Source of the DNA: Amphiscolops sp. MND2022
Lineage: Eukaryota
Direction of reading: 5' to 3'
Assembly (NCBI GenBank): GCA_964187785.1
Contig: OZ076409.1
Coordinates: 21,826,001-21,890,000, forward strand
Length of the DNA stretch: 64,000 nt
Shown: in pieces, positions 5,150 through 26,300 of the stretch
Layout: each line of letters opens with the position of its first letter
Position numbering within the stretch: the first letter of the stretch is position 1
Position numbers and translations under genes: made by a program
Notes under the pieces: model-generated
What the model was told of the DNA's origin: nothing
The model's input: only the letters and a program-made list of their open reading frames with translations
The model's database searches: none

Positions 5150-5509
5150 GGATTGTCATAATTCATAGCAGCCTTCCCTTCTATACTGTTGCCGCAATGG
5201 AAGACTCAACATGGTCTATCTAAAGCTTAAGGGCGAAACACCCTCTCAGGCATAGTACGGAACTCCGTAGAAGTGCAAAGCTAATTTTTGTACGAATGAA
5301 GCTAATTGTGTCGGAATAGCTGTCATGTCCTTTCTCGGAGATTTTCAACGCAAGCCTTGGCAAAACTTCTGAAGCCGACGGTCCTGCGCCACCAGTACAG
5401 GAAAATGCTAGCGGCTTGAAGGTGCTTGTTCCATGTCTATGATTCTCTCTTCATATTTCAATTTTTTCTGACTTTTCTGTTTGTAAGCATCTTTGATGTT
5501 TCGAGGACA
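5150..5509 (-). mobile_element. 3' end of a degenerate CRE-like non-LTR retrotransposon, continuing the element at 23303..~26300
   Basis: The minus strand reads IKDAYKQKSQKKLKYEERII..FKPLAFSCTGGAGPSA..ISFIRTKISFALLRSSVLCLRG, the canonical RLE C-terminus. Confidence 0.8.
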
Positions 5510-6598
5510 CGTGTCGTGCGCAGCAGTGCCAGTCCCAAGCCCGGATAAAGGAGGTGGGTTGGCGTCAGGAAGGACATCCGGCCGTAAGACACTGTTTCAA
5601 AACTGAATCAAAATGGTTCATCACAGTGATGCAGTACGTGACAGTCAGCCAGGCACAATGATCTCATGGAGTGACGAAACCGTAACAGGAGTACTGGCTA
5701 AATACCATAAATGGAAGGCGGCAATGGAAAGGAAAGGTCTAAAGGTCAGTGTGAAGAAGACCAAAGGCATGACTACGAACGACAGCAACAGCCGCCCCAA
5801 TTTAGCAGCCATAGACCCGTGTGGAGTCTGCAGACAGCGTGTTGGGGTAAACTCGATCCGTTGTACAGCCTGCATGTGTTGGGTACACAAAAGATGCTCC
5901 AAAATACGGGGAAGTCTGAATTCGGCAAGGAACTTTGTGTGTGGGAGTTGTGCAAAACCGACTGATCCGGTGACCACCTCGGAGGAAGATTTCGGTCAGC
6001 TAGGACGTGTGGATTTTGTTTACCTCGGGCATTGTGTGGACGCAAGCGATGGTTATGAGGATGCGGTAAGTTCAATCTGCTTGGTACGCCTTCAGACGCC
6101 TAAGAGGTACACTGTTGGTAAGCACGGGCTCTCCCTTCGACAGCGTGGTTTCATTTACAGTAGATGTGTGCGCCCTGTTCTTCTCTACTCATGCGAGACT
6201 TGGAGTTTAACTACCAACCTGAAGCTCCGATTGCAGAGTACGGAACGGAGGATGGTGAGAATGACGTGCGGAGTTCGCCTAGTGGACCGCCTACCATCGG
6301 AGGAGCTGAGAAGGCTTGATATACAGCCTGATGTAATCGAATGTCTGGAAACCAGTATCCTGAGATTGTTTGGGCACGTGGTGCGACGAAAAGACACCCA
6401 CCCGAAAGAGCGGCACACAATTTCAGTGTTACCGGAAAAAAGCCACCCGGTAGGCCCAAAAAGACCTGGGATAACGCTGTGCGGGAGATACTGAAGGCTC
6501 GCCGACTATCGGAAGTGGACGCCCTCAATAGGGTTTTCTGGCCTTCGAGGATTCAGGGACGCCCCGCCAACCTCAGCCAGCTGGGACAAGGCGGCAAC

Positions 6599-6667
<69 letters not shown>
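5510..6667 (+). mobile_element. Internally deleted RTE-clade non-LTR retroposon with a (TGA)n tail
   Basis: RTE-type 5' UTR (GCCAGTCCCAAGCCCGGATAAAGGAGG..GGCGTCAGGAAGGACATCCGG). The ORF has KWKAAMERKGLKVSVKKTKGM, a PHD-like CGVC..CTACMCWVHKRC..FVCGSC, RPVLLYSCETW, LRLFGHVVR and, frameshifted, GRPKKTW. An 18-bp TSD at 5492..5509 / 23303..23320 has 1 mismatch. Confidence 0.85.
6599..6667 (+). repeat. (TGA)23 microsatellite, left border of the recombinase-element array
   Basis: Perfect trinucleotide repeat. Confidence 0.98.

Positions 6668-23271: not shown

Positions 23272-23301
<30 letters not shown>
23271..23301 (+). repeat. (TGA)10, right border of the array, immediately followed by the RTE TSD
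   Basis: Direct reading; TTTGATGTTTCGGGGACA at 23303..23320. Confidence 0.95.
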
Positions 23302-23302
23302 A

Positions 23303-26300
23303 TTTGATGTTTCGGGGACAGGATGCGGCGTGAAGATTTTCACGTCAAAAATGTACGGCAGAAGCGGGAATCCCAGACCGCTGGCCCTGATATCGAGTCG
23401 GGGTTGATCTCCAGTGCATATGGTTCTGTAATCGAAGGACTCGCCTTCCAATGTCTGTAGTTTGGGCTCGGTTTCGACATTACAGCAAACGTATCTCATT
23501 CTTTTGGCGAAAGTGTCACGGATCCCATTGTGTCGCATGTGAGTCTAGCCTGCTTTGTCACTGTGGAGTGCGTGTGAGATTTCGAAGTTACAGGGGCATA
23601 TCAAGGGAAGATTTTCTGACTGAAGACCGTATCTGAGGATAGGCCGTCACGAAATTCGGTTTTTGTCAGATCAAAGCCATAGCGTTTCAATGGTACAGCT
23701 TTTAGCCCACTGGAGGCACATTTTTCAGATGCCAGAGCCACGGAAAGTTGTTGATTGGTTTCAACTGTCATTCGTATTGAATCAGTTTTTGTTCCCAATA
23801 TTTCCCTCTTGTTTTTTTTATGATTCTAATGCTTTTTTCGCTGTTTGCATTCGATGTTTGCTGCATCTTCGCCTGAGAGGCGTTGACCGACTTTTTTGGA
23901 CCATGTGAGATCATTTGTTCTCTCGTTAGGAGTTTAATCCTCCGTTTCTCAGTTGAAGCGCCAACATTTCTCGCACGGTGGATTTTGCACAGTCATGTTG
24001 GTGTATCAACTTTTCACGAATAATCGTCTCGCATGCAGTGCCTGACAGAAACGGTTAACCGTGCTGTACCCCTTTTGATAGGCTGTGGTATGCATTTTGG
24101 GGCAACTTTTTTGCGTTGAGTATTGAGTTCGTTCAGCTCCGTTGCTTCTTCAACGCTGGACTTACCGCAGGCGGAAGATGAGCATATTACGGAACCTAGT
24201 ACGCGATGTCCATCGACGAGTTCGACATCCAGGTTTTCAAATAAGGTCTTTGCCAATTTTTGTGATCTGTTTTGGTAACGAGGTGTCATTTCGTATCCAA
24301 AAGCAGGTCTATTTCAAGCAGTTTCTTGTAGAGCCTATATATTGCGTCAAGATTTCCCCGCAGCATTGCTGTCGTCGGCTTACCATTTCTGTGTTATCTC
24401 TGTGTTACTCTCATTACAGAAATCGTGCAGTATCATTAGAGGTAGCTGAGCTAGTCCGTACATCGACATGGCTAATGGGTCGCCTTGAGATGTTCCTTCC
24501 TGTGATATTTAAATTTTGCCGTTTACATATTAGTTTGAAGGCGAGTCGAAAGAGTTGCGTAGGGCAGTGACTATGGAAAGGCAGATCAGTTCGATGTTCT
24601 GGAGAGCTAAGCTTCTGTTGAGACTATTGAATGCATTTTTGCAGCAATTGAAAGCATTGCTTTGCAGTCATTTTCAAACTTCTCCCTCGGCGGGTGAATC
24701 GCATCCTTTATGCCTTTTTTCTGACCGAGACATGATTGGCTGTTTCTGCTTAATGCTTTGAGGTCGTTGCTGATGCATTTTAAATTGAAACGCGCAAAGA
24801 TTCGTCCTTTGATTTCATCTACACCGATTGGTCTGAGTACATGGTTCTTGTCTAAGAGGATCATTTTACAGGCGTTGTATGTTCAGATAACTTCGTTGAC
24901 TTTTCATCTGACAATATGCGAGCAAGTGATGCGAGGTGCGACTCAGATTAGTCGATGACTGCCGTTTGTAGGCTTTGCGGACCGTTCCAGCGTTTATCCG
25001 GTCGAAAATACTGCAGGGATAAGCTAGACCGTTTTCCTGCGATGAATGTCGGGTTGCTTTTCTTTGGGAAATTCCATTACTGTTTTTTGGATTTTTTATT
25101 GTAATATCAATAATGTTCCCTTTCGAGAGTCGTCGAGTGAACGCAGTGCATTAGGAATTTTCCGGATGTCAGTTGGAAGTCAAATTGTAAAAAATGATTT
25201 GCTTCGTCTCTCTTGGTTCTCATAAGTGCGCGTTGCTGTTGCGCCTTTGCTTCGGTGAATAGTGCTTGCAGCCGCCTTTCCAGGGTTTTTTCTATTGATT
25301 GCTCTCGGTCAGCTCTCGTGTGTGCGGAAAACGAACAGGACATGAGCATTGATGCAGTTCACGGTGTCTATAAAGAGACAACCTAATTTGTTTTTGGTAG
25401 TGATAAATTTCGGCATAGTGAACTACTTCGAGGTAAATTCGTTTCAGCAGCTGGCAATGCTGTTCTGTGGTTCTACCCCAGAAATCGGCTGGAGGTGGGT
25501 CGATAACTCCTAGAGGAGCTCGAAGCTCAGTCTGTTTGTTGTCGCCGTGTTGGGTCGTACCGTTCTCTGAGGAAGGGCGGATACAGTGTTGGTATACGAA
25601 TTCCTGCGTCGATTACCGTGACGTCGATAGACTGCTACTCTTCACGTGAACGTTGCAGCAAATGCAACACCAGACTCCTCGTTTTCGAAGCTGTTTATGG
25701 CAAAAGCTACAATCTTTCTGATCCGACATTTCGTTGAGGATATGAGGGAAGGCTGGTCAGGTCATGTGTATGTACAGTTCAACTATTTATATATACATAG
25801 AATTACAGTATGGGTAGTTAACATTGCTTGAATGGTAATCGAAGTAGAATGCTAAAATTCTAGTGAAAATGGCTTCACCAAAAAGTGAAAAGAATACTGT
25901 TACAAATAGTCTTGGAATCGATTTGTTGTTGAAATTGGGGGATAAAATGAGGAGATTCAAAGAATCCAAAAGTTTGAATAAGCAAATTTCAACGACCGGA
26001 TTTTTTCTATTAAACGGGAGATTGTTGGAAGTCGCAATGGTTTTGGAAATCACTGCTGTTGTGGCTCTGCAGTTGCAAAAGACTAATTGTGTCAGGTATT
26101 TCCAATAATCGGTAAATGTACGGGGTGATGTGCGATGGTCATTAAAACCTGCAATAATTACGAGGGTATTCAGCTATTGTTGGGGATATTTCTCAATTAT
26201 GGTGCACAGTTCGCTGAGTGTAGCTCCCCGGTAAGAATTAAATGCGGCACACATTTGTTTTGATTGTATGTATTTTAATTTGTTCTGGATGTGCCAATGA
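23303..26300 (-). mobile_element. Degenerate CRE-like non-LTR retrotransposon (RT plus RLE), main body; 5' boundary approximate
   Basis: Fragments ILLDKN..LRPIGVDEI..RI, GIKDAIH, NAFN, GHRVLGSVI, LKRYGFDLTKTEFRDGL and MRHNGIRDTFA..VETEPKLQ..RLDIRASG..FDVKIF, with many stops and frameshifts. Confidence 0.75.

Follow-up and report, generated by a model that had tools for sequence, protein, structure and literature searches.

The question raised by this locus was how one intron of a conserved gene came to hold five transposons of two families in a row, all in one orientation and all set in perfect (TGA)n tracts. The locus lies in a 64,000-nucleotide stretch from Amphiscolops sp. MND2022 (assembly GCA_964187785.1, contig OZ076409.1, positions 21,826,001 to 21,890,000, forward strand), called the window below, and all coordinates are positions within it. 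The first-pass annotation of this DNA had described four levels of nesting, and both the levels and their order were supported: an intron of RALGAPB contains a decayed CRE-like retroposon, which contains an internally deleted RTE retroposon, which in turn carries a recombinase array. The nesting itself was confirmed. The whole account, in which successive insertions each entered their predecessor and the (TGA)n target regenerated itself, was judged likely.

The host intron spans 4370-27292 (+; 22,923 bp, phase 0/0) and has a GT donor and an AG acceptor. The exon upstream of the nest (3805-4369, +, start approximate) was aligned by phmmer to residues 56-188 of the RalGAPbeta chain 9qwp_B (E 2.9e-11), and the open frame of 1,328 codons downstream of it (27293-31279, +) was aligned to the same chain from residue 192 and matched Pfam RALGAPB_N (E 2.2e-10). 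The nested insert makes up 78% of the intron, and the array, which had been said to add about 16.6 kb, was measured at 16,606 bp (6665-23270). The downstream part of RALGAPB is a single open frame of about 4 kb, and relatives of 44-66% identity have similarly long frames; RALGAPB is an intron-poor gene with one very large, transposon-filled intron. [quoted passage not shown]

The CRE-like retroposon lies on the minus strand in two parts. The 3' part (5100-5491, -, 3' end approximate) holds the end of the restriction-like endonuclease region and was recognized by peptide landmarks at 5464, 5420 and 5267. The 5' part (23321-26300, -, 5' end approximate), with landmarks at 26251, 25711, 24840, 24487, 23541 and 23349, was labeled by eye as esterase-like, zinc-finger-like and reverse-transcriptase remnants followed by the start of the endonuclease region. 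Once the insert was taken out, the minus-strand remnants stood in retroposon order, beginning near 26,300 and running to about 5,100. The element is decayed, with many stops and frameshifts, and four fragments of it gave no Pfam match. The order of its motifs (reverse transcriptase, zinc knuckle, restriction-like endonuclease) was read by eye against known patterns. We tentatively take the element to be of the CRE type with a restriction-like endonuclease, a label that follows these motifs and not a tree.

Two 18-mers at 5492-5509 and 23303-23320 (both +) bracket the RTE together with the whole array, as had been noticed in the earlier reading, and they are identical at 17 of 18 bases. The next best sites in the window, on both strands, have four mismatches, and none has three or fewer. 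The single mismatch is synonymous in the minus-strand frame, and CPRNIK is encoded by both copies. The insert with one copy of the duplication amounts to 17,811 bp, and after deletion of the insert in silico the frame stayed open over the junction and on into KDAYK and KYEERI. The rejoining of the endonuclease frame that had been claimed therefore stood for these two peptides and did not extend to FDVKIF, which lies in a different frame because of one frameshift just upstream of the junction. The flanks were contiguous at the level of the reading frame, the comparison having been made by frame and not against a CRE consensus. A chance match of the two 18-mers was rejected. The passages of PMC6007223 on integration describe an RTE insertion-site signature of T at the first base and a T run ten bases upstream; the left duplication starts with T and has TTT at -12 to -10, a weak agreement as the region is T-rich.

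The RTE copy follows the left duplication (5510-6598, +, 1,089 bp). It consists of a 5' untranslated region, the start of an open reading frame (ORF) fused to the part of the reverse transcriptase that lies after YADD, with a PHD-like finger, and a 3' hairpin. The ORF (5607-6494) shares 56% identity with the C-terminal region of P0140, a full-length relative with Pfam matches to Exo_endo_phos, RVT_1 and PHD, and represents a frameshifted, decayed copy. Since its first residues align to P0140 just ahead of the endonuclease domain, with residues ~49-717 missing, it was concluded that about 670 codons had been deleted. A motif of 19-25 nt in the 5' untranslated region is common to the related loci L001, L002 and L006, and the 5' part therefore belongs to the RTE itself. 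The clade name was assigned by anatomy, that is, homology to a single-ORF endonuclease and reverse transcriptase, and not by a tree. The copy resembles the bipartite non-autonomous RTE elements treated by Kojima (2018, PMC5786205, in its passages on such elements) in that 5' and 3' RTE parts are joined by an internal deletion and followed by a microsatellite tail. It differs from them in retaining about 0.9 kb of coding sequence. Its deleted form is a cluster of one among ORF records, in which decayed copies may be missing. At its 5' end (5517-5544) a partial, weak match to Twister-P5 was obtained (E 0.88, below the gathering threshold), for which no ribozyme is claimed, and Rfam gave no match in 7 related RTE loci.

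The origin of the (TGA)n sequence was approached through the tails of related elements. RTE elements end in repeat tails according to the corresponding passages of PMC6007223. Of 79 related loci, 33 gave matches that reached the C-terminus, and 3 of these had no downstream sequence, which left 30 for evaluation. A perfect short repeat of at least 9 nt followed the ORF in 24 of the 30 (10 GTT, 8 GT, 3 TGA-type and 3 others); the remaining 6 had imperfect runs, judged by eye. The TGA-type tails, of 4-6 units each, were those of L003, L004 and L005. In the copy studied here, 22 nt past the homologous end of the ORF, a nested 3' hairpin leads straight into (TGA)n, an arrangement also found in L004 and L005. 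The proposal that the landing pad of the array was the RTE's own tail was thus borne out as to position, the tract standing directly 3' of a hairpin that resembles those of related RTEs. The (TGA)n would have come as the tail of the RTE, judging by this position and by the tail unit of the relatives. On the near side the tract has 22 units (6599-6664, +), and on the far side (TGA)10 (23271-23300, +), followed by TA, represents the distal remainder of the tail.

Between these outer tracts stand five co-oriented elements of two families, A and B, in the order A1, B1, B2, A2, B3, each 3.25-3.32 kb long with one long intronless ORF. Element A1 (6665-9985, -) has an open ORF of 709 aa (7306-9435) and is followed by (TGA)5 (9986-10000, +). 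Element B1 (10001-13252, -) has its frame shifted by 1 bp in a T run, perhaps through a sequencing error, and (TGA)20 (13253-13312, +) separates it from B2 (13313-16563, -), in which a 2-bp deletion shifts the frame downstream of the catalytic domain. After (TGA)25 (16564-16638, +) comes A2 (16639-19924, -), with an open ORF of 697 aa (17281-19374) and a 36-bp in-frame deletion in a low-confidence linker, and after (TGA)31 (19925-20017, +) comes B3 (20018-23270, -), with an open ORF of 714 aa (20624-22768) and imperfect inverted ends. In array order the tracts thus count 22, 5, 20, 25, 31 and 10 perfect units, 113 in total. Each of the 10 element ends found in the window adjoins (TGA)n in phase and at identical nucleotides within each family, as read at this one locus. 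The tract's final TGA is already part of family A, whose copies start with it (6665, 16639) and not after the tract. A terminal direct repeat is present at each element as (TGA)n on both sides, its length being unreadable within the repeat.

Such an array could also have arisen from one A and one B insertion by tandem duplication through unequal exchange between TGA tracts. The head-to-tail order in a single orientation, the long perfect tracts and the more than 99% identity of the B copies agree with this explanation. The divergences speak against it. Duplication of an A-B unit predicts equal divergence within both families, while A1 and A2 differ by 3.8% and B1 and B3 by 0.46%, and the A-B unit was rejected on this ground. 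The B copies differ by 0.46-0.86%, and the neighbors B1 and B2 are less alike than B1 and B3. Moreover, the differences between A1 and A2 bear the mark of purifying selection, with a ratio of nonsynonymous to synonymous substitution rates (dN/dS) of 0.35 (Fisher p 2e-4), which would not be expected after neutral local duplication. Copies on other contigs were about as near to A1, A2 and B3 as these were to one another (16 A-like and 15 B records). Because of these divergences, the near copies elsewhere and the dN/dS value, the five copies agree better with separate insertions by families active across the genome than with duplication in place, and tandem duplication was considered improbable.

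The outer duplication encloses the RTE as well as the array, and the insert closes with (TGA)10. Both features would also be expected if the RTE and the array had arrived together as one retrotransposed read-through transcript of 17.8 kb. The RTE, however, is frameshifted and stands at 56% identity to its nearest full-length relative, while the B copies are less than 1% apart, and the 3' hairpin would have to sit 16.7 kb from the end of the RNA. Co-insertion was rejected for these reasons and is regarded as hardly credible.

The source of the tracts was weighed as well. They are far longer than the tails of the relatives, and in nimaviral concatemers or episomes the ends are connected across repeat tracts according to the pertinent passages of PMC10871703; it could thus be supposed that (TGA)n arrived with recombinase circles carrying long tracts, the RTE tail having been different or very short. 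The outer tracts, however, adjoin the RTE hairpin and the duplication and show no trace of another tail unit, and TGA tails do occur in this RTE group. As the source of all tracts, import was therefore thought very unlikely, and it may explain the inner ones. The seed of the array at this locus was most likely the RTE tail.

The proteins encoded by A and B are 40-44% identical to each other. In searches of Pfam (E up to 1) and of PDB sequences neither gave a match. The structure of B3 was modeled with a pLDDT of 78, and the best Foldseek match was XerA (E 4.4e-4), followed by XerD, lambda Int and Cre. In structural comparison VIA came first (Z 11.3, rmsd (root-mean-square deviation) 10.5, 257 residues aligned, residues 197-525), followed by Xer, Cre, Tn1549 Int and lambda Int. 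The fold matches to the Xer, Cre, lambda and Tn1549 recombinases cover residues ~194-520 of B3. The model comprises a zinc-finger region, the recombinase part, a disordered linker and a small, confidently modeled helical C-terminal domain (636-711); the finger has the pattern C-x2-C-x9-H. The putative catalytic residues of the R-K-H-R-H/W-Y set, assigned by order and spacing and not by structural superposition, were conserved in alignment A3 of 30 sequences: R362 in 30/30, K389 in 30/30, R464 in 29/29, H492 in 26/28 and Y501 in 25/28. It was concluded from the model that A and B encode predicted zinc-finger/tyrosine recombinases of the Xer/Cre/lambda-Int fold. In A1, Q replaces the H that closes the first zinc finger in A2, B and close relatives, and A1, though open, may be impaired by this substitution.

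Single-sequence scans of A, B and 28 relatives gave no Pfam match to a DUF3504-type domain or GCR1_C, the domains expected of CryptonA or CryptonF, and such scans can miss distant members. Weak matches to Phage_int_SAM_1, all below the cut-off, were found in 6 of the 28 relatives. In the Atlas the proteins fell into unnamed eukaryotic clusters (0.92-0.97), with named families as leads only (Myb-type for 40% of members, DUF3435 and Phage_integrase). The viral fold matches included no protein named as nimaviral or Crypton, which excludes nothing, and JGI metagenome and IMG/VR contigs yielded no loci of the family. Two distant relatives of the 28 scanned, P0068 and P0132, carry an N-terminal SET domain.

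The recombinase clusters counted 184 (A), 80 (B), 85, 5, 1 and 1 members, all from ENA; these counts take in fragments, may span assemblies and miss decayed copies. A wider search gave 88 representatives. For A and B, with 15 members listed for each, three contig sizes recur, and five members of the distant cluster P0056 (23% identity) have a contig size of 21,251 bp in common. Eighteen distant or partial clusters were mostly singletons or on short contigs, and only P0054, P0056 and P0061 repeated a contig size. The recurring sizes among A, B and P0056 members hint at arrays elsewhere.

Both families share a grid of 17-bp motifs with the consensus ATTAGAGACGCTGTGTA (6670-13247, no strand assigned), of which A1 has 10 sites and B1 has 11 strong sites and 1 weak one. 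The offsets match between A1 and B1: +5, +35, about +240, two at +424-482, two within the ORF, and about -410, -240 and -60; a terminal site at -5 is present in B only. The two sites inside each ORF are in inverted orientation. With a motif model trained on 17 non-coding sites only, these ORF sites scored 19.5-22.6 in both families, and the best score in the other 47 kb of the window was 12.1. The observed ORF-site scores were reached in 0/2000 codon-order shuffles per family and in 0/2000 and 8/2000 synonymous shuffles; an earlier synonymous-shuffle test at a low threshold had been weak (3% and 12%). The ORF sites encode IRDA and VHGVS stretches that are well conserved in close families and not in distant relatives, a limit that suits constraint on the DNA.

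The element ends point to the tract itself as a partner in recombination. The terminal 8-mers TGACCATT, TGATCATC and GGACGATT can be aligned, in phase, to TGATGATG and TCATCATC, and the ends of B are inverted at 18 of 21 positions, those of A being weakly inverted. Because these 8-mers look, in phase, like both strands of (TGA)n, the tract is probably a regenerating recombination target.

The following history was proposed. The CRE-like retroposon, its clade name being tentative, entered the RALGAPB intron and decayed. The internally deleted RTE would then have landed in the endonuclease region of this element by target-primed reverse transcription, generating the 18-bp duplication observed, and would have brought a short (TGA)n tail, whose place is seen here and whose origin is suggested by the relatives. 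Finally, the two families of 3.3-kb predicted tyrosine-recombinase transposons would have inserted into the tract repeatedly and independently, in keeping with the fold and the copy relationships.

A mechanism for the last step was predicted from sequence and fold, namely circle-based excision and integration at (TGA)n. The N-terminal zinc-finger region would bind the 17-bp sites in the way arm-type sites are bound, and the catalytic domains would bind the terminal 8-mers at the borders between element and tract, with the tract providing both target arms and a matching overlap. The 8-mers resemble both strands of (TGA/TCA)n, itself a near-palindrome (T-S-A). The element would excise as a circle with TGA units at its junction. 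Because strand exchange needs a matching overlap, integration would be limited to (TGA)n and to one orientation, and a tract would be left on each side, so that the target would be regenerated and the array would grow. Such a mechanism would cover the exact junctions, the single orientation, the mixed families and growth in place. The RTE tail would have seeded this array, and any (TGA)n tract should serve.

Several observations weigh against this account in one part or another. Co-orientation of five copies is expected by chance at 1/16. The 113 TGA units contrast with the 4-6 of the TGA-tailed relatives, and slippage or import of TGA with the circles is needed in addition. The relatives that supplied the tail unit share only ~36-48% protein identity, and none comes from the same RTE family; GT-rich tails are commoner among the relatives (18/30), many of these looking like one family rather than independent cases. 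The duplication of 18 bp exceeds the range of 7-15 bp into which most RTE target duplications fall (PMC6007223, passages on target duplications), which weakens the case for an RTE and does not exclude it. The earlier statement that RTE elements duplicate about this much of the target was therefore generous. In the recombinases, the first-His catalytic position is occupied by N or T instead of H, and the right end of A has no recognizable terminal 17-mer.

It had also been suggested that retroposon tails supply the targets of these elements in general. In its strong form, RTE tails would be the main source of (TGA)n targets genome-wide, and A and B would depend on retroposons for landing sites. 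Retroposons are a documented source of microsatellites (PMC3812793, as far as its passages on this origin go), and the only (TGA)n tracts of the window belong to the nest, with no tract of at least 3 units in the other 47 kb. The absence of free tracts is of little information, however, the rough expectation being less than one 3-unit tract in 47 kb. The ORF of this RTE forms a one-member cluster against 184 (A) and 80 (B) records, a comparison in which decayed copies may have escaped ORF calling. As each insertion leaves (TGA)n on either side of itself, later ones need no RTE. The strong form was considered unlikely. With one RTE ORF record against 264 for A and B together, and with targets that regenerate themselves, the indirect evidence leans against the view that A and B strictly depend on this RTE family; seeds may also have come from other RTE families with TGA tails. 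No recombinase-like sequence was found in any of the 79 RTE-relative loci, nor in the window outside the array.

The elements were compared with known recombinase systems. CryptonV is a tyrosine-recombinase-only DNA transposon with some microsatellite-specific families (Kapitonov and Jurka 2012, as summarized in one sentence of PMC8869645). A and B resemble it, by that one-sentence description, in encoding only a recombinase and in their insertion into microsatellites. Mixed two-family arrays and a 17-bp grid did not turn up in the literature searched. With the Crypton superfamily, whose groups A, F, I and S are treated in the relevant passages of Kojima and Jurka (2011, PMC3212892), A and B share the recombinase as the sole transposition enzyme, without a reverse transcriptase or DDE transposase. 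The same passages propose excision as circles, and recombination sites made of two inverted arms around a short spacer, and define Cryptons by terminal direct repeats of 4-6 bp. Cryptons are described there without terminal inverted repeats, in contrast to the 18/21 inverted ends of B, in a definition that predates CryptonV. The animal groups A and I are described as having no C-terminal domain, and the A and B proteins have a modeled helical one (636-711).

The telomere-targeting recombinases of endogenous nimaviruses are described in the pertinent passages of Kawato et al. (2023, PMC10871703). These share an architecture of C2H2, SAM-like and recombinase parts, the SAM matches of the A and B relatives being weak and below the cut-off, as well as insertion into simple repeats; the joining of ends across the repeat in concatemers or episomes is a nimaviral feature. 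They differ in belonging to large viral genomes at (TAACC)n, whereas A and B are single-gene elements of 3.3 kb at (TGA)n.

The lambda and Tn916/Tn1549 integrases have the core-binding and catalytic fold and an extra N-terminal DNA-binding part, and their systems have repeated sites near both ends, as in A and B. They differ in sequence (8-16% identity) and in that A and B have eukaryotic zinc fingers, a microsatellite target and two sites within the coding sequence. By analogy, A and B may work like CryptonV and the nimaviral recombinases, beside which they were set by description and not by sequence.

Microsatellite targeting by tyrosine-recombinase elements and the birth of microsatellites from retroposon tails have each been published already. 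Arrays of this kind, or a dependence on tails, were not found in the open-licence PubMed Central (PMC) and bioRxiv literature, Repbase Reports being outside this coverage. A broader claim would make A and B an undescribed compact intronless lineage distinct from CryptonV, with (TGA/TCA)n as a self-regenerating attachment site, a 17-bp grid complex with two coding sites, families that mobilize each other in shared arrays, and RTE tails supplying most seeds. Taken as a whole, this combination was held to be quite unlikely.

Other repeats were observed in the remainder of the window. A second decayed retroposon (1-830 and ~1420-1500, +), labeled by eye from a zinc knuckle and an endonuclease-like tail, gave no tblastx match to the nested CRE-like element and is apparently broken by ~0.6 kb, within which lies a 47-bp inverted repeat (1229-1275 / 1374-1420). 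Two adjacent tandem duplications with periods of 236 bp and 122 bp lie at 1819-2520. A dispersed non-coding repeat family occurs in both orientations at ~26400-26480, 35680-36050, 47570-48230, 54410-55470, 60710-60850 and 62200-62650; by appearance it is similar to a miniature inverted-repeat transposable element or a Helitron, and one copy adjoins the CRE-like element at its 5' end. The region 43000-54000 (-) has a long, strong GC skew and contains, at 49164-49649, a fragment of an integrase core (rve, E 2.6e-5, below the cut-off); it is probably a decayed long-terminal-repeat-type element. A hAT transposase dimerization fragment was found at 59141-59530 (-; E 1.5e-5).

The nesting by itself is ordinary transposon history, and the array is the more useful part. 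Eukaryotic microsatellite-targeting recombinase transposons are known mainly from database notes, with no mechanistic description in the literature searched. This locus offers precisely defined ends, a protein with an open frame that evolves under purifying selection, candidate sites for binding, and a model of a simple repeat as a directional, regenerating site. A reliance on RTE tails, if demonstrated, would clearly exemplify how one class of transposon makes the niche of another. At this locus, the history proposed here would be a route by which a single short retroposon tail adds 16.6 kb to the intron of a conserved gene.

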